A stretch of DNA of 37,424 nt. Source: a virus. Both the position numbers and the translations under genes were made by a program. The notes beneath the pieces were generated by a model. It was given only the letters and a program-made list of their open reading frames with translations, searched no databases and was not told the origin of the DNA. This document shows positions 889 to 34,900 of the stretch, piece after piece. The DNA is taken from positions 1 to 37,424 of the IMG/VR virus record IMGVR_UViG_3300028629_000001, one strand, 5' to 3'. How positions within the stretch are numbered: position 1 is the first letter of the stretch; every line of letters starts with the position of its first letter.

Positions 889-1259
889 GCCCACACCTCT
901 AAATCAATCGTCACAATAAACTCATTGTCATTAGGCGCATAGCTCGGCGGATTGGCTTCTGGAGAAAATCTTGCCTGAACATAGACAGGCGCCGCGTCAT
1001 TATTAAACAGTCTCCAATCAGGCCAATAAAAGGTATCAGTTCCATAGTGTAAAATCGTCTGGTAAAACGCCTTGAACGTCGCAAGTTGTGCCGCCGTCAT
1101 TGCATAAGAATATCGATGCGGTTCAGGCGCTGTCGTAGCTTTGAGACGGATCTTTGCAGGCCCAGCGTCCATTTTTGTAACACGCCTATTGTCAGGTAAC
1201 GATACGCTAGCACCATCTTGAAGCGGCCTTAATGGTAAAGAAGTCGGCCAGTATTCCAT
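885..1259 (-). CDS. Minor/distal tail protein (gpM-like position)
   Basis: 124-aa ORF starting one base after the tape measure stop. Called from synteny only. Confidence 0.5.
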   Translation of the reverse strand: MEYWPTSLPLRPLQDGASVSLPDNRRVTKMDAGPAKIRLKATTAPEPHRYSYAMTAAQLATFKAFYQTILHYGTDTFYWPDWRLFNNDAAPVYVQARFSPEANPPSYAPNDNEFIVTIDLEVWA

Positions 1260-4200
1260 TTAGCTTTTCCTCACGCCACCGGCGTTTGCCGTGGCAATTT
1301 CTTGCCGTACTATATCCCGTAAGGTAAGGATAATCTTTTTATTCCCAGCAGCATCGGTAATTGTTTGCGTCTTGCTGGCGACAGGTGTCGACGAATAATT
1401 GTTGATTTGAATATCGATATTGCCTGTTGCTTTGGCGGATACTCCTAGCTTCCCTGTCGAATCACGCGCTAGAGGCATGATAGCTTCAGGCCCAGCTTCG
1501 GCGAACACACCACCTTTTGCGAAGGTAAATAATTGCGGATTGTCGTAGACGTTATTGGCGTATTGGTGCAAAGATGGAGAAGTATAAACATCTCCAAGCG
1601 CATTGCTTTTCAGTAAGCCAGCCCCAACGCTTCCTACAAGCCCACCGCCAATCAATGCAAGGCCTAGAGTATCATTTGCTGGATTTATATCAGTCAGCAT
1701 TTGCAACCCAGCCTGCACCGCTAGTTTCGGTAGCATAACAAGAATTTTCTCTAGTGTATCGCTCATTGCGTCGCCGAACGAATTCCACGCATTTGCACCA
1801 TCTGCGATCGCTTCACCGAGTTCATAGAATTCATCAGTAAGAGAGCTTATGGTTGTTATCAGAATAGCGTCACCGAATTGTTTCGCAAGTTTCGTTCCTG
1901 TGTCATATTGTTCCGCAAGTTCACGTAACGCTTGCTTGTAGCCTTCAGTAGATATTTCTCCATTAGCAAATCGTGTTTCTAGCTCATCCAACGCTGCCCT
2001 ATACTTTTCAGCATCAGTATATGCGCTTTGAATAGTGTAACCCAGAATATCTCCAGTATTCGGATTGATAGCGATAGTTTGTCTTTCTCGCCAATTAGTT
2101 GATGGTGGGGCATTCTGGTAGGCGAGCATGTTTAATCTAAATAATCCTTCTGGCGTCTGTGTTTCTTGATATGCTATCTTATAATCAATTCTTGAAATTT
2201 CTTCCGCTGCCTGTTCCTGTGTAAGTAACGGTATACCACCGCCTGGCTTATACATCCAGCGATCGGGTGGTACACGTTTCGCAGCCTCTGCAAGGTAAGT
2301 TCTAAGTTCAGTGGCTATACTAGCATTTATTGGTTCCCAAAAAGCATCTGCCTGCTCTTGCGTGAGATATGGTATCCCGCCGCCAGGCCTATTCATCCAG
2401 CGATCAGGCGGAACACGCTTAGCAGCCTCAGAAAGCTCTGCTCTAAGGTCTGTAGCTATCTGCGCATCTATAGTAGCGATAATAGAATCCGCTTGTTCTT
2501 GAGTTAATAATGGTATTCCGCCGCCAGGCCTATTCATCCAGCGATCAGGTGGAACACGAGCTGCAGATTCAGCAAGTTCAGCTCTAAGGCCAGTAGCTAT
2601 CTGCGCATCTATTGAATCAGTAACTGCTTTTGCAGCTTCTGGAGAAAGGAAAGAAACACCACCGCCCGGTTTATACATCCATCGGTCAGTAGGAGCCCGG
2701 GATGCCATAGCCTGCATTTCTATGCGGCTATCTAAATACATACTTGACGCAATAGTATCGAGGGCAGTTTGTGCTTCTTCTTGAGTGAGGTATGGTATAC
2801 CACCACCAACCTTATTAAGCCAGCGATCCGTTGGAGCGCGCTTTGCAGACTCTGCAAGTTCTGCTCTAAGCCCGGTAGCTATCTGTGCATCTATTGAATC
2901 AGTAACTGCTTTTGCAGCTTCTGGAGAAAGGAAAGAAACACCGCCACCTGGTTTATATAAATACGGGTCAACGGGTACTCTTGCCGCGGAATGTTCTAAT
3001 TCAATCCTTGTAGACAAATCAATCGACGCTTGTATGGTTTCAAGTGCTATATCGGCTTCTTCTGGCGTGAGATATGGAATGCCTCCACCGACTTTATTAA
3101 GCCATCGATCAGGCGGAGCTCGTTTTGATGCTCCTGCCAGCTCAAGCATTGTTGAGCTAAATATTTTGTTATCTATTCCAGCTATAATCGAATCTGCTTG
3201 CTCAGGTGTAAGTAGGGGAACACCGCCGCCAGGCATTGATTCCCATTTGTCGCCTTTATAGCGCCCAGCCATTTTGGAAAGTTCGATAGCGGTATCAAAG
3301 GCAATTCGATTGCTTATATCATTAAGAAAAGCATCAGCTTGCTCTTGTGTTAAATACTGTAAACCACCGCCTGGTAACCTTGCCCATCTATCAGATGGCG
3401 CACGATTAGCAGACTCAGCAAGTTCAGCTCTAAGGCCAGTAGCTATCTGCGCATCTATAGTAGCGATAACAGAATCCGCTTGCTCTTGAGTGAGTAGTTT
3501 AATACCACCACCAGGTCTATTCATCCAACGATCAGGTGGAACACGAGCTGCAGATTCAGCAAGTTCAGCTCTAAGGTCTGTAGCTATCTGCGCATCTATA
3601 GTAGCGATAATAGAATCCGCTTGCTCTTGAGTGAGTAGTTTAGTACCACCACCAGGTCTGTAGAGCCATCTATCGGTTGGCACGCGTGATGCCGCAGCAC
3701 TAAGTTCCTGAGATACTGAGAGCGTTACCGATGCAGTGATTCGTTCTAGCTCTGCCTGTGCTTGTTCAGGCGTTAATAATGGAATTCCTCCACCTGGCAT
3801 ATACATCCAGCGATCAGGAGGAACTCTTGATTCAGCCGACCCAAGATATTTTTCTGGTGGAGAATATTCTTTAATTGCATTTTGTAATAAGGTTATGGTA
3901 CCTTCGCCGAGCTTCCAAATGCCTGAAGTAAGCATCTTATAGAGTAAATCATTCGCATTATTAACAAACTGTTTTTTTACTTTTTCCTGTAATTCTGGTG
4001 GGAGATTCGGCAGGTCTTTTGTGTGCTGATTTATCCATTCTTGCACAACATAAGAGCCTGTGGGCTTCTCCCATCCAAGTTCATAGCGAGTCTTAGTAGC
4101 ATCAATGCCTGTTGCTTCTGTAAGCCACTGTCGCCAATCAAGTCCATTTTGTGATTGATCTTCTACAGGAACCCATTTTCTTCCTTCGGCACGATAAAGT

Positions 4201-5348
4201 TTCCCATTATATGTCGCATATTGGCCGTTATAATCAGACCATTCACTCAAAGAAGAAAGAGTTTTGTATCCACTCGGAGCATTAAGCCTTCCAGACTCGA
4301 GAGCGGTTTGTGTTTGCTCTTTTTGTAATCCCCTTAAAATCCCCAAGACTTGTTCTTGAAGAGTTATTCCAGTTCTTTGCCCGGTAATATTAGGCGCATA
4401 TCCGGGTGGTATTACACCTTCTAGTTGTGTAGGATTGGCTCGCGCAAATGCAAGCGCTGCTTGAATATTTCCACTTGACCCACCGGAAGCAATGACTGTT
4501 TTTATATTTTTTCTACCTAACACTCGATCAGAGTATTCATTGAAATCATCAAGCCATGATTTTAACGAGTCTTGTAAAGACTTCCCCATTTCGGCAAGCA
4601 TTGCCTTCCAATTATCTTTGGCGATGGATAATTTCCCCTCATAAGTTTGGGCGGTTTTTTCCATCATGCCTTCAAATTGCCCACCAGCTTCAGTAAGGGA
4701 TCTCAATGCATTTTCAATTTCAGGGAAGCCTACTTTGCCTTCGGTAACGAGAGCCTGCACCTGCTCGACTGATTTCCCCATGACTTGCGACAAAGCCTCG
4801 AATATTGGGACTCCAGCATTGACGAATTGGTAAAGGTCTCTAGTAAGGACTCTACCTTGTGCAAGCGCCTGGCCATAAGCAAGTGCCAACCGTTGCATGG
4901 TTTCATCGTTGCCGCGCGCAACGTCTCCCATGCGTTCAAGAGTAGGAATGATTTCTTCAGTAGCAAGGCCGAAGCCCTTTAACATTTGAGCGGCGCTTTC
5001 TACACCTTGGAATGTAAGAGGGGTGCGCTGAGCAAGGGCATAAAGTTCGCCGAACATTTTCGAGCCTTCCCCAACATCTTTCAAAAAGACGCCCCAGGCC
5101 ACACGCGAACGCTCGAAACTCCCGGCAAGGTTAACCGCCTCTTTGCCAAGATCAATAAACTCTCGAATAGCCGCTCGAGTAACTTGGATGCCAAGATTCA
5201 TCCCTGAGGAATAGCCTGCTATTTTAAGCGCAAGAGAACTAAATGACGCCTCGGTGTTGCGGCCTTGGTTGGCAAGGTTTTGGAGCCCAGCCGTGGTTTC
5301 TTGGATACCTTCATTATGTACCCGTACAATTAAGCTTGCATCATCCAT
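1260..5348 (-). CDS. Tail tape measure protein (1362 aa)
   Basis: It is the second-longest ORF (after the 1765-aa host-specificity gene) and sits downstream of the chaperone pair. The N-terminal core (GFGLATEEIIPTLERMGDVARGNDETMQRLALAYGQA...LYQFVNAGVPIFEAL) is typical of tape measure domains. It also has a Gly-rich hydrophobic segment near the C-terminus. Confidence 0.9.
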   Translation of the reverse strand: MDDASLIVRVHNEGIQETTAGLQNLANQGRNTEASFSSLALKIAGYSSGMNLGIQVTRAAIREFIDLGKEAVNLAGSFERSRVAWGVFLKDVGEGSKMFGELYALAQRTPLTFQGVESAAQMLKGFGLATEEIIPTLERMGDVARGNDETMQRLALAYGQALAQGRVLTRDLYQFVNAGVPIFEALSQVMGKSVEQVQALVTEGKVGFPEIENALRSLTEAGGQFEGMMEKTAQTYEGKLSIAKDNWKAMLAEMGKSLQDSLKSWLDDFNEYSDRVLGRKNIKTVIASGGSSGNIQAALAFARANPTQLEGVIPPGYAPNITGQRTGITLQEQVLGILRGLQKEQTQTALESGRLNAPSGYKTLSSLSEWSDYNGQYATYNGKLYRAEGRKWVPVEDQSQNGLDWRQWLTEATGIDATKTRYELGWEKPTGSYVVQEWINQHTKDLPNLPPELQEKVKKQFVNNANDLLYKMLTSGIWKLGEGTITLLQNAIKEYSPPEKYLGSAESRVPPDRWMYMPGGGIPLLTPEQAQAELERITASVTLSVSQELSAAASRVPTDRWLYRPGGGTKLLTQEQADSIIATIDAQIATDLRAELAESAARVPPDRWMNRPGGGIKLLTQEQADSVIATIDAQIATGLRAELAESANRAPSDRWARLPGGGLQYLTQEQADAFLNDISNRIAFDTAIELSKMAGRYKGDKWESMPGGGVPLLTPEQADSIIAGIDNKIFSSTMLELAGASKRAPPDRWLNKVGGGIPYLTPEEADIALETIQASIDLSTRIELEHSAARVPVDPYLYKPGGGVSFLSPEAAKAVTDSIDAQIATGLRAELAESAKRAPTDRWLNKVGGGIPYLTQEEAQTALDTIASSMYLDSRIEMQAMASRAPTDRWMYKPGGGVSFLSPEAAKAVTDSIDAQIATGLRAELAESAARVPPDRWMNRPGGGIPLLTQEQADSIIATIDAQIATDLRAELSEAAKRVPPDRWMNRPGGGIPYLTQEQADAFWEPINASIATELRTYLAEAAKRVPPDRWMYKPGGGIPLLTQEQAAEEISRIDYKIAYQETQTPEGLFRLNMLAYQNAPPSTNWRERQTIAINPNTGDILGYTIQSAYTDAEKYRAALDELETRFANGEISTEGYKQALRELAEQYDTGTKLAKQFGDAILITTISSLTDEFYELGEAIADGANAWNSFGDAMSDTLEKILVMLPKLAVQAGLQMLTDINPANDTLGLALIGGGLVGSVGAGLLKSNALGDVYTSPSLHQYANNVYDNPQLFTFAKGGVFAEAGPEAIMPLARDSTGKLGVSAKATGNIDIQINNYSSTPVASKTQTITDAAGNKKIILTLRDIVRQEIATANAGGVRKS
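2136..3827 (-). repeat. 12 in-frame tandem repeats of 141 nt (47 aa) inside the tape measure gene
   Basis: The unit R[VA]PxDRW(x3)PGGG(x2)LLTQEQAD(x2)IATIDAQIAT(x)LRAELAESA(x) was counted 12 times. Some copies are nearly identical at the DNA level. Confidence 0.9.
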
Positions 5349-16011: not shown

Positions 16012-16412
16012 GAGTCGGCCTCTTGATCGCTAGATGCTTGACTCGTGTCGCCATTGTCGCCCTTGTCTACCTCAACGCCAGGCCCCGCGACGACTATTTG
16101 CGGCAGGTCGCCAGTAATAGCCACCTTACTCCCTTCCGTTGTCTCCCTGATTTCTTTTATCAATGCAATCTTCGCTGAATCTGACCCTTTCGCTAATATT
16201 TGCGTAACAACCTGCTCTAATAGTTCAAGCCCTGTTGCGGGCTTTCCATCGATAACCACTTTCGTTTTCTTAGCAAGCAGCCGTGCATACATCTCTGAAA
16301 TAGCAGCTTTCTCTCGCCTAGCTTTTGCCGACGCCTTGCCTCCTTTTGAGCCCAGTTCTCTAGCTTCGCTCTTGCTGCGCTGCGAAGTAGGAATAAGGTT
16401 CTGCTCATTCAT
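16008..16412 (-). CDS. Putative terminase small subunit
   Basis: 134 aa with a basic N-terminus (KGGKASAKARREK) and an acidic tail. ATGA-coupled to terL. Confidence 0.5.
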   Translation of the reverse strand: MNEQNLIPTSQRSKSEARELGSKGGKASAKARREKAAISEMYARLLAKKTKVVIDGKPATGLELLEQVVTQILAKGSDSAKIALIKEIRETTEGSKVAITGDLPQIVVAGPGVEVDKGDNGDTSQASSDQEADS

Positions 16413-17145
16413 TCTTATTCTCCTGCTGCATCTTCGCCTTCTGCCTAATCTGGTATTTCGTCATCCAAGCCTTAGAATATTCAGCGTTCTCAAATAGCTT
16501 AGAGAAGCCAGTAATATGTTTTAGCTTAAGAACTTCCTCTGGCTGCATGCCTAATTCTTGACATATCTCAGCCTCGCTCATACCATTATCGAGCATCTGG
16601 AATACGAGGTTAGACATTCCTGTTACCATATGCTCTCCTCTGGCTCTATTATGCCTTACAGTAGACGCCATCCTCTCGGTAATGTCTTTATCTATCACTA
16701 CTATAGGGATCCTACCATTTATCCGCTTAGAAATATCTGCCTTAGTCTTTGCTATAAAATATCTGTGGAATCCGTCAACAATAATGTACTTGTCTAGCTC
16801 TTTATCGTATACCGTTACAATAGGCTGAGTATACCCATCGTGAGAGATTGAAACGTATAACAGCTCCATCTCTATACTTGCTACTGAGTTAGGGTTATAG
16901 TCGTTTGCCTGTACTATATCTACTGGCACCCAAAGAATTCTATCGACTGGTTGGCTCTTCTGCGGTGATAGGCTGCTAATAAATGTTCTTAATTCATTCA
17001 AAAATTCGATCTTGTCATCTGCCTCATTGAACCACTTAGTTATCAGCTCAATATCTTTTTTGCTTCTTTTCTTTAACCCGCCCTGTAGGTCTTCTATTGC
17101 ATCGAGCGGCAATAAATCGGCTGTTTTGCAGGCAATTCTTACCAC
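16405..17145 (-). CDS. ParB/Srx-fold (ParB N-terminal domain, IbrB-like) protein
   Basis: The GTG at 17145 lies 6 nt after GGAGG. The motif YIIVDGFHRY follows NDYNPNSV. It is the first gene of the late operon. Confidence 0.65.
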   Translation of the reverse strand: MVRIACKTADLLPLDAIEDLQGGLKKRSKKDIELITKWFNEADDKIEFLNELRTFISSLSPQKSQPVDRILWVPVDIVQANDYNPNSVASIEMELLYVSISHDGYTQPIVTVYDKELDKYIIVDGFHRYFIAKTKADISKRINGRIPIVVIDKDITERMASTVRHNRARGEHMVTGMSNLVFQMLDNGMSEAEICQELGMQPEEVLKLKHITGFSKLFENAEYSKAWMTKYQIRQKAKMQQENKNE

Positions 17146-27132: not shown

Positions 27133-27540
27133 TCAGTGCGCGATCAGGTAGACAATCCCCCCAGTAAGTACCACGTTTGCAAGGATTGAGATTATCAAGC
27201 TACGGTTGGCTGACTGTAAGCGGATTTCGTAGTTCTTGGCTAATTGCCTCGATTGCTCCAATGAGGATTCGTATGCGACTAATCGTATCACTAATTCCGC
27301 TTGCTTGCTTTTGAGCATCTGCAATTCTGCTTGCGACTCGGCTAAGTCGCTCTGTGCTAGCGTCAAGGAGTTTTGTAAGCTCATGATTTGCAAGTTCAAG
27401 TTGTCGATTTCTTGCTTCAAGCTCCCCATAAGATTGTCGAAGTCTTCCCAGCTCGCGGCTGGTTGCGATTGCGCTGTAAGCGGCGACAATAAGCAAAATG
27501 CAAACAATAACGAGAGCAATATCCTTACTGATTTTGTCAT
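27133..27540 (-). CDS. Alternative-frame ORF: signal-peptide-like N-terminus, coiled coil, C-terminal TM helix
   Basis: It uses the second ATG of ATGAATGA, 9 nt after the same RBS, and stays open for 135 codons. It ends 10 nt before the next gene. Codon usage is atypical (TTG/TTA, CAA). Confidence 0.35.
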   Translation of the reverse strand: MTKSVRILLSLLFAFCLLSPLTAQSQPAASWEDFDNLMGSLKQEIDNLNLQIMSLQNSLTLAQSDLAESQAELQMLKSKQAELVIRLVAYESSLEQSRQLAKNYEIRLQSANRSLIISILANVVLTGGIVYLIAH

Positions 27541-27544
27541 TCAT
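27200..27544 (-). CDS. N-terminally anchored coiled-coil membrane protein (lysis-cassette accessory); the preferred of two overlapping frames
   Basis: It uses the first ATG, 5 nt after GGAGGG. One N-terminal TM helix is followed by a charged coiled coil. Leu/Gln/Arg codon choice resembles that of the capsid gene. Confidence 0.5.
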   Translation of the reverse strand: MNDKISKDIALVIVCILLIVAAYSAIATSRELGRLRQSYGELEARNRQLELANHELTKLLDASTERLSRVASRIADAQKQASGISDTISRIRILIGAIEAISQELRNPLTVSQP

Positions 27545-27555
27545 CTAGCCCTCCT

Positions 27556-27893
27556 TTAATCTCCTGGCTTATATGGCGATTCCATTTGATTATCAAATTC
27601 TGTCAGTCCACTATCCATATTTTGGCGTAATTTTGGTAGTTGACTGGCAGAATTTACGCCGCTCGAACCATCCGGTATCGCCGGATAGTTGATGCCGCGC
27701 AGGTCGCTGATTGTCGTTAATCCTAGCAGCACCAGCACCACCAGCGCGCAGCCAAGCCCGCCGTAAATGCCCGCCGTTGTGCCGTATAGTGCACCGATAA
27801 GCAAGAGCGCGCCTGATAAGAGAGCATAGTACAGCGCCAGTAATCTCCGCATCGAGCGCGCGCCGTCCTGCTCTTGGGTGTAGCCTGCGCTCA
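27556..27893 (-). CDS. Holin-like protein (two TM helices)
   Basis: The ATG at 27893 overlaps the endolysin TGA and follows GGAGG. TM segments are LLALYYALLSGALLLIGALYG and GIYGGLGCALVVLVLLGLTTI. Confidence 0.6.
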
Positions 27894-28346
27894 TGATAGC
27901 CTCCATTGCAGGTGCGGGAAGTCGGGGAAGTCTTTCCACCGCACGCCAGACTCCCACCCGAATCCCTCCGCGATGGTTGCCATGCGCATCCAGACTCGCG
28001 TTGGGGCATCCCACCACGCCTTGCCGTCAGCCTTGATAGGCACGATATCCATCGCAAGCCCTGATAAATGCCTGCTTTTGAGTGTCGTTGTGATAGCGGT
28101 TTGTGTCTCTTTGTCGGTGAGTTTTTGTTTTAGCCCCGCAGCATCGTACATCATCCGCACATGGTTGGGAGCCATGCGCCCGCGGGAAAAGTATGCCATT
28201 TGCACTGCCAGCTCGCGCCGCGTCTCGACAATAAGCCAGCCGGCCACGCCAGAGTTGCGCAGCTCATCATCTGCGGCCAGCGCATCGAGCGTCTTGCGCG
28301 CGGCGTCTTGACAGCGAGGGTCTAAATCCTCGATTTTGCGGCTCAT
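27891..28346 (-). CDS. Endolysin, peptidase M15 (VanY / L-alanyl-D-glutamate peptidase-like)
   Basis: Zn-ligand motifs SRHLSGLAMD and DFPHLQW are present. ATGA overlap with the upstream gene. Confidence 0.75.
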   Translation of the reverse strand: MSRKIEDLDPRCQDAARKTLDALAADDELRNSGVAGWLIVETRRELAVQMAYFSRGRMAPNHVRMMYDAAGLKQKLTDKETQTAITTTLKSRHLSGLAMDIVPIKADGKAWWDAPTRVWMRMATIAEGFGWESGVRWKDFPDFPHLQWRLS

Positions 28347-28663
28347 TTGCATCCCTCCTCGACGAGGTGTCTCTGGATTTCATCTTTCGCTTCACGGATT
28401 TTTGCCAGCGCGTCATCGACATTGCCGTTTATTTTTTTGCCTTTGAGGGCATGGAGCTGTAGCTCTTGCGCATCAATGACCGCCAAAAGCGCGGTATACT
28501 GGTAGCGATTGTCATCACGCACGGCAAGCAACGTCTGCTGCACCTCGGCGAGCAACGCGTCCCGCTGATTGAGTATCTTATACCGCTTGCGCGCTATTGC
28601 CCAAGTGCCTGTTAGTATCGCGGTCGTTACTAGCGCCACGGCAGTGTTGATGACGGTATCCAC
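28343..28663 (-). CDS. N-terminally anchored coiled-coil membrane protein (holin or lysis accessory)
   Basis: The GTG at 28663 follows GAGGTG and the upstream stop. One TM helix is followed by a coiled coil. Confidence 0.45.
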   Translation of the reverse strand: MDTVINTAVALVTTAILTGTWAIARKRYKILNQRDALLAEVQQTLLAVRDDNRYQYTALLAVIDAQELQLHALKGKKINGNVDDALAKIREAKDEIQRHLVEEGCK

Positions 28664-28665
28664 TT

Positions 28666-28983
28666 TTACACCTCGCCATGGCGGCACAACAACACCTTCG
28701 GCTTCGGCGGCTCTGGATACTCTGGCACAAGCGGCGGCTTCGGCAAACTTGCGTTAAATTCAGCTATTGTTTGTGGTACTGGCACGTCCGGCCACTCAAT
28801 GTCTGCAGGGAATGTTGCCTCGTCCACTATCTCATAGAGCCTTCGGTCATAGCGCAAAAAGTCTTCTACGCTTTTATGCGTGTATCGCTCCGCAAAACTA
28901 GGCCGTTGCGCATAGGCCGAGGCGTCCAGTAATTCGTTTCTGCGGAGCTTTGCTTCTTCAATTGTTTCAAAGTGTTCAACCAT
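28666..28983 (-). CDS. Tail fibre assembly/chaperone-like protein
   Basis: RRNELLDASAY...LRYDRRLYEI...FPADIEWPDVP resembles the conserved N-terminal motif of Tfa-type proteins. Confidence 0.4.
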   Translation of the reverse strand: MVEHFETIEEAKLRRNELLDASAYAQRPSFAERYTHKSVEDFLRYDRRLYEIVDEATFPADIEWPDVPVPQTIAEFNASLPKPPLVPEYPEPPKPKVLLCRHGEV

Positions 28984-29009
28984 TTGTAACTCCTTATGCT
29001 ATGTAACAA

Positions 29010-29120
29010 GAGCGAGAACCGACATGGTAGCCCGCATTCGAGCGAAGGTAAAGCAGATAAAGGCACGCGAGACCGGCACTGGACGCGTCGTGCCAGTTAC
29101 CACCGCAGATCGGCAGGCGC
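29010..29120 (-). repeat. Non-coding DGR-type repeat (copy 2), 91/111 nt identical to the fibre VR
   Basis: Aligned by eye to 30330..30440. It lies in the position where a DGR template repeat would sit. Only a 44-codon ORF covers it. Confidence 0.8.
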
Positions 29121-29242
29121 CACATTCAGCTACACCCCTTTTTATTGCTAGGCGGTTTTAAGCCAGCCGCCCAACATCTTCCCGACCTCGGACGTGTACC
29201 GTCCGAGGACTTCCCATTTCTTAAGGGGCATAAATCCCAGTT

Positions 29243-30052
29243 TTACGCCCAATCTAACCAAAAGTCTAAATCTGCCAAGATTCCTGTCTGCCTCCTGAAT
29301 GAGGTACCGCTTCTCGGCGCTTTCTGAAACGACACTTGCTCTATGGTTTTCTCACTACTTTCGAGCACTCGGTCAATTTCAGCTCTCAATTCTATTAACA
29401 GCGCAATTGCCTCCTTTGTCGGCTCGAATGACCCTTTCGCGCGCAACGCGATAAGGACAAGGCGTGCGTTCGTCATCGGGAACATGCCATTTGAGCGCGT
29501 GAAAAATTCTTCTTGCTTTTCGTCAGGCTTTGCCCCGCTTTGATTGAGCTTAACAGCAAGGCTCGATGCTCCAGCGGCAACAGGGCGGCGCTCGCCATCG
29601 CTAAACTGCACACTGCGCTTTTGAAAGAATTCTTTTGCGCGCTCCGGCGTGATGCCTAATGCTTTAGCGATAACCTCGATGGGCAGTTTTAGCTCTTGCG
29701 CCTTAATGATGACGTGCGCTTTGTCCATCGGCGACAGCGGCAATCCCTGGCTTGCATTGAGCGCCACTGCGTCAATAAAGACGTCCTTGTCACTTTTGTA
29801 TTCACGCATGATTGCGCGGATCTGCGCTGATTCTCCGTAGACTTTTTCATGCGCCTTTGTACGATGGAACCCGTCAACGATTCGCATGGTTTTTTTATCA
29901 ACGATAATCGGCGGAAGCTCGATTCCAGCCTTTATTGCGTCCACCATACGCATGACGTTGGTGTAGTCAACATTATTAGCCTCGTGACGCGGCCAAATAC
30001 CCCAATCAAAAATCAAAGACGCGCACGGAACAAAAACTACATCCTCTCCCAT
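29243..30052 (-). CDS. ParB/Srx-fold protein with HTH (second ParB-like gene)
   Basis: The ATG at 30052 lies 7 nt after AGGAGG. Motifs are PPIIVDKKTMRIVDGFHR and IEVIAKALGITPERAKEF. Confidence 0.65.
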   Translation of the reverse strand: MGEDVVFVPCASLIFDWGIWPRHEANNVDYTNVMRMVDAIKAGIELPPIIVDKKTMRIVDGFHRTKAHEKVYGESAQIRAIMREYKSDKDVFIDAVALNASQGLPLSPMDKAHVIIKAQELKLPIEVIAKALGITPERAKEFFQKRSVQFSDGERRPVAAGASSLAVKLNQSGAKPDEKQEEFFTRSNGMFPMTNARLVLIALRAKGSFEPTKEAIALLIELRAEIDRVLESSEKTIEQVSFQKAPRSGTSFRRQTGILADLDFWLDWA

Positions 30053-30280
30053 TTCACACCTCCTAAAAATTATTCTCCCATCAGTCTTTTTAGCTTTTCC
30101 CGCTCCATTTCCTCGCACCGCGGGCAAAGTGTCCGCTTGGATCGCCGCTCCTGTATCGAGGAGCGCGTTGACCGTTTGCGCTGCCAAAGTGTGGCGTTCG
30201 CTCTTCGGGTAGCTCTTTATGGCGATGTACGCATATCCGGCGAGATCCTCCCACTTTGTCAGCACGGTTAAGTTGTCCAT
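30053..30280 (-). pseudogene. avd: Truncated avd (DGR accessory variability determinant) remnant, in frame with the ParB-like gene
   Basis: MDNLTVLTKWEDLAGYAYIAIKSYPKSERHTLAAQTVNALLDTGAAI matches helices 1-2 of four-helix-bundle Avd proteins, including the P(K/R)xE(R/K) motif. Only 76 codons remain; helices 3-4 are absent. Confidence 0.55.
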
Positions 30281-30307
30281 TAAGAAACCTCCAAGAAAGA
30301 TCAAGGA

Positions 30308-31855
30308 TCAGGAGAGAGAAATAAAAGCCGAGCGAGAACCGATAACGCTGCCCACAGCCGAGCGAAGGTCATCCAGATAAAGGCACGCGAGACCGGCAAC
30401 GGCCGGGTTGCCCCAGCCACCACCGCAGATCGGCAGGCGCTCACCGTAGTTTCGCATGTATAAAATGCCCTTCGGCGACCACGGATTTGTGCTGCCAGTG
30501 CTGGAAATCTTGGGAGCTATCCCCGCTTTGAGCATTCTCTGACGGACAGCGATATTAAGAGCATCATACTCTGCAGCCATCATCAAGGAGCTATGCACTA
30601 CCGAGGAAGAATTCGGATTGGTCAGCGCATTCTCGCGAGAGGTATTAAGTATGGGAACACCACCTGATCCAGCAACAGTATTATCAAAATACACTCCTTG
30701 CGAAGGCCAAGATGCTTCTGCGAGATCAAAATAGTTGTCGTTCGGCATATAAATGAGGCCGTCCACAATTTTCATTAAATCGGTCCACTCGTACATCGAC
30801 CCTACAAGATCGTAGATACCCCATCGCTCACGATTGTGGGACCATGTTGAGGGGCATGATCCGTTTCTGTGTTTCGGGGTTCCCGATGCCACTCCTGGAG
30901 CTAACCCGTCAAATCGGACCGCAGACTCATACTCGTAGCCTGATTCGTGGCTTCTGCCGTAGTAGGTATTTCCCCTCGGCTCTGTGCCCATCTTCATAGA
31001 AAGCCACATAATGAGCGCGCGCTCCCAAATATTCATCATGTGCCAGCCAGGGCCTTTAGATGTATGCAAGGCTTTATTGACGTCATAATTTAGACTTCCA
31101 GTCGGATAAAGGCCAGGCCAAGATACGGCGCGCCATCCAGTGCCACTACCATGATAACTTGTACCATTGAAGCTGGTCATCTTAAACATTGAAATAAATA
31201 TTTCAGTTTTTTGTACACCGTTAACCTTAAAAGCGGGGAAATCATCGGTCCCTAAAGTGGCACCGCCCATATCAGAATGGATATGCCCCGCGAGGATAGG
31301 CCCGCGAATAACGTACATCATCGAGGGGAAACCAAGGTCATCATGTATTACTGTGGCCGCTCCATTGGATGAAGATTCAACAATTCTTTTTAATAGGGAT
31401 GGTGGCATCTTTGCTGCGGCATTATAATCCCAAAGCGCAGTCGCCGCTTCAGCGTCTGCAAGCTGTTGTAAGTGCGCATACCCGGCGGCAAGTGCACCTT
31501 TCTCTGCAGCGGTAACGCGCTTGTAATTCGTTCCATCGTCGAGGCTATCAAGGTTATACCCGCCAGCGTCAAGCAAGGAAGCAATCTCTGCGCCTGTGGC
31601 CTTCGGCACTTTTGTGGCGTCCTGCTGTCCAGTCGAGGCAAGCTGCACCTTACCTTTGACGCTTGTTGTTGCATCGGGCAGACGGTTCGCCAATTCGGTC
31701 GGCGAATCCAATACGTCTTTCAGAAACTTCGTTCTATTTGCAAGTGCCTGCGCCTGTGCGTTCATTACGCCGCCGGGGCCACCTATTGCCTGAGTTGTCG
31801 TCTCGAGTTGCGGTACGCCAGATTCATACACTGACGATTCGGTTAAATTTGCCAT
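30308..31855 (-). CDS. Tail fibre / receptor-binding protein with a C-type-lectin (FGE-like) fold and a C-terminal DGR variable region
   Basis: The N-terminus is a conserved fibre motif (SVYESGVPQLETTTQAIGGPGGVMNAQAQALANRTKFLKDVL). IYDLVGSMYEWTD is FGE/CLec-like. The C-terminus is CGGGWGNPAVAGLACLYLDDLRSAVGSVIGSRS. Confidence 0.75.
   Translation of the reverse strand: MANLTESSVYESGVPQLETTTQAIGGPGGVMNAQAQALANRTKFLKDVLDSPTELANRLPDATTSVKGKVQLASTGQQDATKVPKATGAEIASLLDAGGYNLDSLDDGTNYKRVTAAEKGALAAGYAHLQQLADAEAATALWDYNAAAKMPPSLLKRIVESSSNGAATVIHDDLGFPSMMYVIRGPILAGHIHSDMGGATLGTDDFPAFKVNGVQKTEIFISMFKMTSFNGTSYHGSGTGWRAVSWPGLYPTGSLNYDVNKALHTSKGPGWHMMNIWERALIMWLSMKMGTEPRGNTYYGRSHESGYEYESAVRFDGLAPGVASGTPKHRNGSCPSTWSHNRERWGIYDLVGSMYEWTDLMKIVDGLIYMPNDNYFDLAEASWPSQGVYFDNTVAGSGGVPILNTSRENALTNPNSSSVVHSSLMMAAEYDALNIAVRQRMLKAGIAPKISSTGSTNPWSPKGILYMRNYGERLPICGGGWGNPAVAGLACLYLDDLRSAVGSVIGSRSAFISLS
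30330..30440 (-). repeat. DGR variable-region-type repeat (copy 1) at the 3' end of the fibre gene
   Basis: A 111-nt block shared with 29010..29120. All 20 mismatches fall at codon positions 1 or 2. Confidence 0.8.
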
Positions 31856-31920
31856 TTCATCCTCCTTATGGGTTCGCCAAAATTGTCTTGCAGATTATTG
31901 TTTGTATAGTTTACAGCCAT
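31843..31920 (-). CDS. Possible 25-aa micro-ORF between the J-like gene and the fibre gene
   Basis: AAAGGAGGGataaaATG at 31920. The product is MAVNYTNNNLQDNFGEPIRRMKWQI. It overlaps the fibre start and is too short to verify. Confidence 0.25.
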   Translation of the reverse strand: MAVNYTNNNLQDNFGEPIRRMKWQI

Positions 31921-31954
31921 TTTATCCCTCCTTTAACTCCAAATATTGCTCTCC

Positions 31955-34900
31955 TTATGGATGATATGGCGTTGCAAGTGAGAAACCAAAACGATACATC
32001 TTAAGAGATTTGTTGTAACTGTCGATAAATGCCACATCAGTACCATTCATCGCGGCAAGAGCAGGTATTCCCCCAGAAAGCGATATACTCCCAGCTGACC
32101 CTACCTGCGCCCAACTTGAACCATTCCAGCGATATACTCTAATGGAATCGTTGGATCTGTCGATAAATGCAACATCGGTACTATTAAGTGCGGTAAGTGC
32201 TACTTGGCCTACTCCCGTTATTGTTAATCCAGAACCTACTTGTGCCCAACTTGAACCATTCCAACGATATACTTTAAGGGATTCGATGTAACTGTCGATA
32301 AATGCCACATCGGTACTATTGAGTGCTGCAAGTGCAGGATAACCTACTCCCGTTATTGTTAATCCAGAACCGACCTGCGCCCAACTTGAACCATTCCAGC
32401 GATATACTCTAATGGAATCGTTGCCACTGTCGATAAATGCCACATCAGTACTACTGAGGGCTGCAAGCGCGGGAGTGCCTGCTCCTGATATTGTTAATCC
32501 AGAACCAACTTGTGTCCAAGTTGAGCCATCCCAGCGATATACTCTAAGAGAAGCGTTGACACCGTCGATAAATGCCACATCGGTACCATTAAGCGCCGCA
32601 AGTGCGGGGTAGCCTATTCCTGATATCGATAACCCAGAACCTACTTGTGCCCACGTTGAACCATTCCAGCGATATACTCTGAGAGAATCGTTGTCCCTGT
32701 CGATAAATGCAACATCGGTACTATTGAGTGCTGCAAGTGCAGCGGAGCCTGCTCCAGATATCGTTAATCCAGAACCTAGTTGCACAGGGCTTGACCATTT
32801 CACACCTCGCACTTCGGCAATATCTAGTTTCGCGCCAACCGCCTCAAGAACCCCAGTTGAATGCGCGAGCCTAAAGCCAGCCGAGGGGAAGCCTGTAGGG
32901 TCGGTAGCGAAATTCGACGATTTGATATATCCTGTGGTGCCTAAAACAATGTTTTGTGCAAAGAGAAAACGGACCAGCAGAGTCTCAAAACTCGTTGCCC
33001 CCGTACCTATGTAGTCAGCCGACACACCATATCCCTGCCTGACGGCATCAAGTACGTAGACAAAGCATAATGATACTTGATTCGCCGTAGGGCTAGGCTG
33101 TTTGGTCCATGTTGTGCCGATATAGGCATAGATGCCACGTTCGGCCCACACTGTGGAGTAAAGCACGGCAAGGTCATTCTCGTGCATTCCCGCGATTGAG
33201 CCACGGCTGGCGTAAGCAAAGAGGCCAAGACATCTAGGTATCATCTCCTCAACGTCATCTTCGCTAAGTTGAGGCAAACCATCCGCAACCCATGACGTTG
33301 TATAAATGTACCATTGCCGAGTATCGGTCTGATAAACGCTATCACCGAAAATCATGCCAGTAAGCGCATTTCTTGCGGTAGTATTGGCTACGTCAGCATA
33401 CCGTTTCGGGGTGAGGCGCGTTGAGTTTGCAAGAGTGATTGATGCGCCAGCTACAGTACAGCGGTAGAGCAGGGAGGCGTCGAGGAATAAATCCCCAATT
33501 TTGGCGGAGGCTTGCGCGAGCGCGAGCGTCGCCCATACTGTGGTTTTCGCGTTTGCCGTTCCTTGCGCGGCGTCGGCGAGAGTTTTTGCCTTCGCAGCGA
33601 TAGCGTTCAGGAGTGCGGTTCTGGCGTCGTAGTAGGCTTTCCACGTTGCCCGGAATGTAGCACCTACGATATCGGTTGTCGTTCCGAGGTTTGCATCAGC
33701 GAGCCACGAAGGAATTCCAGATGTCCAGGTCGTTCCGGCATTTAGATAGGTAGCAAGAGCCTGGAATGCATTATCGTAGGCCGTCTTTTCAGTGGTTATT
33801 CCGAAAGCGGTAGCCTGTGCATCGTTCGCCGTGAGTTCGGCGGCGATTATATTCCACTCGCTTCTTGCGCTAGATTTTTCAACCGGAGTGAGCTTGCTGT
33901 CTGATGCAATATCGGCAAGCAGATTATTTGCGATAGTCGCAGAGGATGCGGCATTGTTGGCGGTAGTCTGCGCATTCGCAGCTGCGGTCACGGCAGAATT
34001 TGCCGTTCCTTGCGCGGCGTCGGCGGCCCCGGCCGCTGCGGTCGCGCAAGCCTGCGCGACGGGATCAGATATCTCCGTCCACGCTGTACCACTCCACTGT
34101 TTCCATACGGCTCCTGTAGCGGTGCGCCAATAATCGCCAATATGTTCATTTTTTAATGCGGTTGTTGTCCAGTCAATTGAAGGGTCGCCAGCTTGCGTAT
34201 AGTAAACAATTGCCCTGTCAACCTGTGTCTGTAGAGCTGAGGCAAGCGTTTCCGCATAATCTTTTGCATCGTCTGCATAATCTGAAGCTATTGATGCTAC
34301 TTCTGCCGCTGTCTGCCCAGCATAATCCCTTACCCATGTATTTGGCATTGTGCCGATATATATTATCCCTTGATAAATTCCGTATTGACCGTTGAAATCC
34401 ACGGGGGCAGAGAGCGTTGCAAGTGCTTTTGTTGCAGGATATGGAATCACGTCTTGTGATGGCGGATATACCGGCGTCACTGTAGATGGCGCCGAGGCTT
34501 TCGGCCCGAAGCTCACCTTGCTATTAAATTCAGGTATTGCACCAGCATCGGCATTGTGCACAGCTGGAGCCGCTTCAAACAATGTCAATTTCGCCGACAA
34601 ATCATCGTTCAAATCAATACCAAATACGATACAGTCAATGGTCTCAAGGCCAGCGATACCGAAGAAGAACATATCTCCGACAGCTGGCATATCATCATTG
34701 ACAGGCATACCGCTTGAAAAAGTAAGCGTGTGTGTGTCGCCAGCAACCGTTGCAACAGGCCAGTAAATTGAAGCCCCACTTGAAGTCCTAAAACGTATAG
34801 CATATGATTTACCTGATTCCATAAACACCGCATTGTCGGTTTCTACAGCGAGAATATCGCCATATTCATCGGTAGTTAATCCTGTAAGCCTGCCATCTGC

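Follow-up and report, generated by a model that had tools for sequence, protein, structure and literature searches.

A probable remnant of a phage diversity-generating retroelement with a chimeric template repeat and a split accessory gene

Introduction

How does a phage genome come to hold two diverged copies of the repeat of a diversity-generating retroelement (DGR), one on each side of a broken accessory gene, and no reverse transcriptase (RT)? The locus that raises this question lies in IMG/VR virus record IMGVR_UViG_3300028629_000001, of which we analyzed a stretch of 37,424 nucleotides (positions 1 to 37,424), referred to here as the window. It is a siphovirus-like phage genome with almost every gene on the minus strand, and Pfam matches in it include the terminase, portal, capsid, tail tube and tape measure, a 1765-aa J-like protein, the fibre and the endolysin. 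The answer that we consider probable is that the locus is an inactivated remnant of a canonical phage DGR, composed of a fibre gene with its variable repeat (VR), the accessory gene avd, a template repeat (TR), the RT and a tail-fibre-assembly-like (tfa-like) gene, and that it was killed by two lesions. In kind, the locus is nothing out of the ordinary, a decayed DGR that derives from a known system, but its history is unusually easy to read.

The Repeat Pair and the Template Surviving in Relatives

The first of the two repeats belongs to the fibre gene, of which the following features are concerned.

30308..31855, minus strand: tail-fibre/receptor-binding gene of 515 aa, the former DGR target (open reading frame, ORF; phrog_2889, 1e-71)
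30326..30440, minus strand: VR (copy 1), the last ~37 fibre codons, an adenine-mutagenised version of the TR of relatives

A repeat search found a direct repeat of 111 nt that pairs 30330-30440 (copy 1), at the 3' end of the 515-aa fibre gene 30308-31855, with 29010-29120 (copy 2). The copies are identical at 91 of 111 positions (82%), and the scaffold occurs nowhere else in the window, where shuffles give an expectation of 0 by chance. All 20 mismatches fall at codon position 1 or 2, which has a probability of (2/3)^20 = 3e-4 under a uniform model, and the mismatched sites carry adenine in 8 of 20 cases in copy 2 and in 4 of 20 in copy 1. The original prediction, which was made from the letters of the window alone, had reported the repeat pair, the avoidance of third codon positions and both adenine counts, and the repeat search and a recount agree with it on each.

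Relatives were sought at the level of both DNA and protein. An exact 24-mer taken from the scaffold of the window had 0 matches in IMG/VR, the relatives differing at a variable TAT codon, and a 22-mer taken from the invariant start of the repeat retrieved them. Distant blastn of GenBank phages with 27500-32500 returned just one spurious match of 127 nt, and genome contigs scanned with an N-padded scaffold pattern gave 0 matches, hence no host is assigned. A search with the fibre protein yielded 70 homologues, some of which carry Mtd_N or FGE-sulfatase Pfam domains.

One of the relatives, the IMG/VR contig L005, encodes a fibre protein 87% identical to that of the window and carries an intact cassette. 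Its order is fibre (1995-3566), avd (3570-3932; 120 aa, bAvd 2e-17), TR (3960-4074; a repeat of 115 nt), RT (4227-5279; 350 aa, RVT_1 4.6e-21), tfa-like gene and endolysin. The canonical target-avd-TR-RT layout is also found in the more distant relatives L021 and L007, and the DGR footprint that had been claimed for the window, with the layout target-avd-TR, matches the intact loci of L005 and L021. A global MAFFT alignment of the window with L005 was scrambled by rearrangements, so segment-wise blastn and direct comparison of the flanks were used.

One and the same TR, with 25 adenine positions, is carried by three contigs independent of one another (L005, L009 and L010). This common TR reads AAC TGG AAC AAC ACG TCC AAT ... 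AAT CTG AAT AAC ... AAT GTG AAC AAC AAT ATC and contains ..GGTAACTGGAACAACACGTCCAAT.. among its codons. Compared with it, the VR of the window shows 18 differences, 17 of which are at TR adenines (binomial P = 1.4e-10), and copy 2 shows 14, with 13 at adenines (binomial P = 4e-8). Because these differences sit almost all at A, both copies are adenine-mutagenised products, and the earlier statement that neither of them is the template stands. In the window, a target gene ends in a VR with A-to-N differences from the TR, and no template repeat has adenines matching the variable positions of that VR. The template inferred earlier from the two copies alone was correct in 11 of 13 codons; the TR of the relatives has TCC and GTG where ACC and GAG had been inferred, and two more variable codons (AAT and AAC) had been masked by the same substitution in both window copies. 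In DGR-bearing relatives, the VR-TR homology ends at ..CGCTCGGCT, and folding found no significant stem-loop 3' of either VR flank, a structure that is not universal among DGRs.

Some details of the repeats in this family deserve separate mention. At repeat index 86 (29034 in copy 2, the middle base of GTG), copy 2 has C, L015 has G and L001 has A, while T is kept in the other eight VRs compared; this is a non-adenine TR position that varies recurrently. The variation may reflect a TR allele that was not sampled and that has GAG at this codon, as in the earlier inferred template. In L011 (Ga0116158_10102871), the TR (~1204-1318, reverse strand) has AGC GAC in place of the AAC AAC of the three other contigs, and the VR of the same contig (CAC AGC) fits the canonical TR, not L011's own. 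The TR may have been eroded at A sites while the rest of the cassette stayed intact, or VR and TR reads may have been mixed during assembly. In L010 (ERZ795059 NODE-75534), the VR at reverse-strand position 46 has 0 differences from the TR, yet VR-type flanks, and is either a freshly reset or naive VR or the result of assembler collapse of both repeats.

The Target Fold and the Missing RT

An AlphaFold2 (AF2) model of the fibre protein, built on a 50-sequence alignment, has a mean predicted local distance difference test (pLDDT) value of 82.9, with values >90 over most of residues 160-515. Its top Foldseek match in the Protein Data Bank (PDB) is TaqVP (5vf4; E 3e-30, template modeling (TM) score 0.81), followed by TvpA, PvdO and Mtd. 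Residues ~145-515 are thus modeled as a DGR variable-protein domain of the C-type-lectin (CLec)/FGE type, the fold that had been expected for the C-terminus of the fibre, and residues 1-140 have phrog tail-fibre matches.

No DGR-clade RT is encoded in the window. Pfam gave no RVT match in 40 ORFs, including every non-nested ORF long enough for an RT, and a remnant did not appear either: tblastn of the L005 RT against the whole window stayed at E >= 1, and blastn of the RT gene found nothing. The original prediction had noted this absence in the genome, and the searches bear it out. In relatives L005 and L021, the RT is present.

Copy 2 as a Chimera of Template and Variable Repeat

If neither copy is the template, the question is what copy 2 represents. 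The sequence on its two sides gives the answer, and the features are listed from the TR-type flank to the gene that follows.

29121..29147, minus strand: avd-TR spacer, the TR-type 5' flank of copy 2, same as the sequence immediately upstream of the TR in four DGR-bearing contigs
29093..29120, minus strand: first 28 nt of copy 2, the interval holding the TR x VR switch, identical in TR and VRs
29010..29092, minus strand: VR-derived part of copy 2, with 13 substitutions at TR adenines and one T-to-C
28994..29009, minus strand: orphan C-terminal tail of an allelic fibre gene (..S-C-Y-I-A-stop), identical to the DNA after the VR in L001, L003 and L014
28666..28983, minus strand: tail-fibre-assembly/chaperone-like (tfa-like) gene, 105 aa (Pfam Phage_tail_APC 3e-4)

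Upstream of copy 2, 29121-29342 is identical at 222/222 nt to the avd-3'/TR-upstream sequence of L005, L009, L010 and L011, and copy 2 therefore occupies the TR locus. The last TR-specific base is 29121. Since the first non-TR base is 29092, the switch lies within 29120-29093, and the three A sites in 29093..29120 are all unmutated. The T-to-C site of the VR-derived part also varies in L015 and L001.

Downstream of copy 2, the flank is TCTTGTTACATAGCATAAGGAGTTACAAATGGTTGAACAC..., which is neither TR spacer nor RT. It corresponds to L003 (0 mismatches in 50 nt), L014 (1 in 159) and L001 (13 in ~285), in which the fibre gene runs directly into the tfa-like gene without a cassette. The fibres of these contigs, P0006 (L001), P0005 (L003) and P0004 (L014), end in GSRSCYIA*, as does a 43-aa ORF across copy 2. 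The description of copy 2 as lying in non-coding DNA therefore needs amendment, as its reading frame runs on into the final codons of an allelic fibre gene, whose orphan stop overlaps the ribosome-binding site (RBS, TAAGGAG) of the next gene. That gene agrees with the same source: the 5' ~250 nt of the window's tfa-like gene is the cassette-less 'CYIA-type' allele, and the RT-linked tfa of L005 is just 86.5% identical. Copy 2 is a chimera, with the TR to the left and the VR and tail of an allelic, cassette-less fibre gene to the right, the latter from the second variable codon of the repeat onward.

The TR locus could also have been altered by the element itself. In such a self-homing 'burn-out', one of the histories offered by the original prediction, the element's own RT would have written mutagenised cDNA into the TR, and a later deletion would have taken the TR 3' end and the RT. 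The position of copy 2 at the TR locus and its differences from the canonical TR, almost exclusively at adenines, would agree with this, and the L011 TR, with two A-to-G changes while the L011 VR fits the canonical TR, hints that TRs of this family can be hit at A. However, burn-out requires two events, and its deletion must rebuild exactly what three cassette-less relatives have behind their VR, namely the ..TCTTGTTACATAGCATAAGGAG.. fibre tail, the RBS and the tfa allele; where L005 and L009 have an RT-linked tfa allele, the window has the one of the cassette-less type. Burn-out is unnecessary and leaves the 3' flank of copy 2 unexplained. We rejected self-homing followed by deletion, as the foreign tail, RBS and tfa allele would need chance re-creation, and we regard it as extremely improbable.

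Direct gene conversion between copy 1 and copy 2 was also set aside as unneeded. The two window copies have 3 substitutions in common, which is the background of unrelated VR pairs (mean 2.7).

The Interrupted avd Gene

The second abnormality of the locus lies between the two repeats, in the accessory gene.

30137..30280, minus strand: 5' part of avd with codons 1-48, at 100% identity to L005 avd (the Pfam bAvd match covers just profile positions 4-38)
29343..30136, minus strand: insertion splitting avd, 794 bp, a fragment of another phage with a ParB/Srx-like gene
29148..29342, minus strand: avd 3' fragment, codons ~57-120 and stop (tblastn 98% identity to L005 avd residues 56-120)

The gene had been described as truncated. 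It is instead interrupted by a 794-bp insertion, the ends of which could be placed to the base, and both halves are kept, at 98-100% identity to L005 avd. The window is identical to L005 (100%) from the VR 3' flank through the avd start and on to avd codon 48 (30137), and matches it perfectly again from 29342 onward. The split after codon 48 leaves no intact accessory gene, and the avd 3' fragment is now out of frame with the upstream ORF.

The insert is derived from another phage. Its segment 30108-29356 is 90.6% identical to L018, where a 238-aa ParB-like gene (P0071) stands free. The insert ORF has its own RBS and an ATG at 30052; its native stop was removed by a ~37-nt deletion, and the ORF reads through to 29243 across out-of-frame avd sequence. 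The encoded protein matches phrog_1033 (ParB-like, 1.6e-12) and contains the motif IVDGFHRTKA (DGxHR-type), and its homologues P0081 and P0088 carry PF02195, so that the ORF is assigned to the proteins with a ParB/Srx-like N-terminal domain. Pfam on the fused insert ORF itself gave no match at E <= 0.01. In L016 and L017, the homologue is located upstream of the terminase small-subunit gene, not within avd, and a related-locus search of IMG/VR found no relatives of the ParB-like protein's locus.

A second, different ParB_N-domain gene (16405-17145, minus strand; phrog_2159, 8e-75) adjoins the terminase region of the window. This terminase-adjacent position is the usual place of such genes in relatives bearing a homologue of the avd-inserted copy.

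An intron in avd was considered as well and rejected, as an Rfam cmscan of 28800-30600 at E <= 1 was empty and the insert is a fragment of a free-standing gene region.

A perfect 9-bp GC hairpin had been noted at 29186..29208, just upstream of copy 2, and folding agrees (29186-29208, minus strand; free energy -11.7 kcal/mol, z = -3.9). It falls within the 3' part of the avd coding sequence, with the TR position ~65 nt farther downstream; it is identical in all DGR-bearing relatives and has no T-run. Because a motif in the avd 3' end of BPP-1 terminates reverse transcription (PMC12875486), the hairpin may belong to the DGR RNA and not be a terminator.

Proposed History of the Locus

The first lesion would have been homologous recombination in the first ~28 nt of the 111-nt scaffold. 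A phage with a DGR would have contributed its TR, and a relative lacking the cassette, in which the fibre is followed directly by tfa, its VR. The product would have kept the fibre-VR, avd and TR 5' flank of the donor and, beyond the crossover, would have received the other phage's already diversified VR, its last fibre codons (CYIA*) and its tfa. One crossover would in this way produce the adenine-mutated 'template' and the orphan in-frame fibre tail, and would also remove the 3' end of the TR, the spacer RNA region and the RT. In a variant of this event, an excised VR/TR circle carrying avd would integrate into a cassette-less VR and give the same product. The second lesion would have been the illegitimate insertion of the 794-bp fragment with the ParB-like gene, which splits avd. 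The analysis shows the mosaic with its junctions, the adenine specificity, the lack of an RT and the target fold; that natural recombination made the mosaic, which way the exchange went and which lesion came first are inferred. None of the three histories in the original prediction is quite right; the closest is the orphan 3' end of a second target gene, but one that was recombined onto the TR.

The consequences of these lesions can be judged from BPP-1. In the reconstituted BPP-1 system, inactivating Avd, RT or TR each abolishes retrohoming (PMC12875486), and because each component is needed, either lesion alone (the split of avd, or the loss of TR and RT) is expected to kill the element. An element without an RT, an intact Avd or an adenine-bearing TR cannot diversify alone, and its VR is frozen unless served in trans. 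The VR acts as a mosaic junction elsewhere in the family too: L005 and L006 are 100% identical upstream of it and 93% downstream, and just L005 has the cassette.

Several points weigh against the two-lesion history. In scans of IMG/VR and genome contigs by k-mer and pattern, the chimeric junction did not turn up in a second genome. Sequence alone does not prove which way the event went, and the cassette-less CYIA-type genes could derive from a window-like locus. The sequences do not discriminate between a single crossover and circle integration. Finally, the join falls in a 28-nt stretch identical in TR and VR, where an assembler could, in principle, chimerise co-occurring DGR-bearing and cassette-less strains.

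This last point leads to an explanation in which the genome is not real: a DGR-bearing strain, possibly with the ParB-like gene already in its avd, and a cassette-less CYIA-type strain would have been joined in assembly through the shared scaffold, where the 28-nt exact TR/VR match contains the junction. Strains of both kinds do occur together, as DGR-bearing L009 and cassette-less L013 come from one metagenome (Ga0209099). The repeat also troubles assembly, since related contigs end at or soon after the VR (L003, L004) or start inside it (L009), and the L010 VR, identical to the L010 TR, is possibly a collapse artefact itself. However, common assemblers finish with k-mers longer than 28 nt, and in this family their contigs stop at the VR instead of crossing it. 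The gene order of the window, which is reported to be a closed genome of 37.4 kb, is coherent. The DGR-bearing parent was defective already, as the insertion of the ParB-like gene into its avd independently shows, and natural VR mosaic junctions are present in independent contigs (L005 vs L006). We therefore consider an assembly chimera unlikely and prefer natural recombination followed or preceded by the insertion in avd.

Cassette Polymorphism and Possible Servicing in Trans

While the recombinational history concerns the origin of the locus, its present use is a separate matter, and one further reading is compatible with that origin. The VR, whose 3' flank is intact, and perhaps copy 2 could be diversified in trans by the avd-TR-RT of a co-infecting or co-resident DGR-bearing relative with the same TR; we think this possible, though rather doubtful. 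In BPP-1, avd-TR-brt was shown experimentally to act in trans on a separate target (PMC12875486; PMC5758913). Cassette-less VRs differ from the common TR solely at adenines (9 sites in L006, 14 in L013 and 8 in L014, with 0 non-A). Over 1437 nt upstream of the VR, 1 nt distinguishes L006 from L013, yet their VRs differ at ~13 sites. One DGR-bearing and one cassette-less contig also originate from the same sample. The same pattern would, however, result from repeated cassette loss or from VR recombination onto cassette-less backbones (L005 vs L006). Moreover, each window copy has one non-A substitution, as expected once a repeat is no longer rewritten, and no stem-loop follows either VR flank.

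The cassette is polymorphic in close relatives. DGR-bearing L005 and cassette-less L006 and L013 have fibre bodies that are 99.9-100% identical and different VRs. This family pattern fits frequent scaffold recombination and also trans diversification, and the data do not separate both. L012 groups with L006 as cassette-less in comparison to L005, and L015 and L019 represent further cassette-less junction types. A short, imperfect direct repeat flanks the L005 cassette, CGGCTTTTATT behind the VR (3548-3560) and CGGCTTATTGC at the RT 3' end (~5225-5240), and the junction of cassette-less L006 (1552-1575) is CGGCTTTTATTGCAATATAAGGAG. These sequences suggest that the cassette was gained or lost at the short direct repeat, and the RT 3' end appears to hold a relic of the fibre tail and the tfa RBS.

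A broader idea, to which we give a small but not negligible chance, is that the avd-TR-RT cassette is a shared resource, so that cassette-losers, including the window phage, keep a competent VR, which is rewritten in trans by DGR-bearing relatives in the same host. If this were true, the cassette-less state would be no dead end, and the constant VR/TR scaffold would be a portable site for cassette gain and loss. With its near-identical fibre genes and different A-site VRs, the family can be used to test trans-diversification and cassette turnover. The trans-diversification of cassette-less VRs is the main lead of this work.

Comparison with Known Systems and Significance

The intact relatives share the order target-avd-TR(-RT) with the BPP-1 DGR (mtd-avd-TR-brt). 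As in BPP-1, the VR is located at the 3' end of a receptor-binding tail-fibre gene, the accessory gene belongs to the bAvd family, the variable sites are positions 1 and 2 of AAY codons, and the target fold is of the CLec/FGE type; Mtd (1yu0-1yu4) is among the Foldseek matches of the window fibre, but distant (TM ~0.3). Unlike BPP-1, the window has no RT, no adenine-bearing TR and no stem-loop after the VR, and its avd is split. The best structural match to the C-terminal ~380 residues of the fibre is TaqVP of Thermus aquaticus (5vf4; 28% identity, target TM 0.81). TaqVP and the window fibre both have variable residues in the C-terminal segment, and in contrast to TaqVP, which is a cellular DGR target, the window domain is fused to a phage fibre N-terminus.

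Remote or non-adjacent DGR targets, such as those of Treponema denticola (PMC5758913), are similar to the window in having a VR gene without an adjacent RT and adenine-only differences from a distant TR. They have the RT and TR in the same genome, whereas the window has none, so servicing would need another phage or prophage. The cassette-less loci (L001, L003, L014; L006, L013; L015; L019) have in common with the window the fibre family, the VR scaffold and the fibre stop overlapping the tfa-like RBS, and the 3' part of copy 2 is the cassette-less arrangement. In contrast to these loci, with one repeat and no avd, the window has two repeats around a broken avd.

A literature search turned up no account of an RT lost through recombination between TR and VR, but its coverage was incomplete and the mechanism may be reported elsewhere. 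According to the literature, TR and VR seldom recombine in laboratory experiments, and non-A changes occur in 23% of DGRs. If the proposed history is right, the locus provides a base-resolved natural example of phage DGR death, in which the TR-VR homology needed for retrohoming also exposes the DGR to recombination with cassette-less relatives. For genome annotation, RT-based DGR finders would miss this genome, and those that rely on repeats could mistake copy 2 for a TR with 'non-adenine mutagenesis'.

Other Observations in the Window

Next to the fibre gene, the 3' end of the 1765-aa J-like gene (31962-32801, minus strand) contains five tandem repeats of 135 nt (45 aa) with 60-84% identity. 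The repeat units read ..ALAALNSTDVAFID..LRVYRWNGS.WAQVGSGL.. and give a weak Pfam Tectonin match (6e-5), and from their sequence they look like a beta-propeller, a lectin-like distal domain on the tip-attachment protein. The tape-measure protein (1260-5348, minus strand; 1362 aa) matches the Pfam families TNT (tuberculosis necrotizing toxin; 4e-11) and DUF2680 in its whole-protein scores; no individual stretch reaches significance, and these scores are probably repeat or low-complexity noise.

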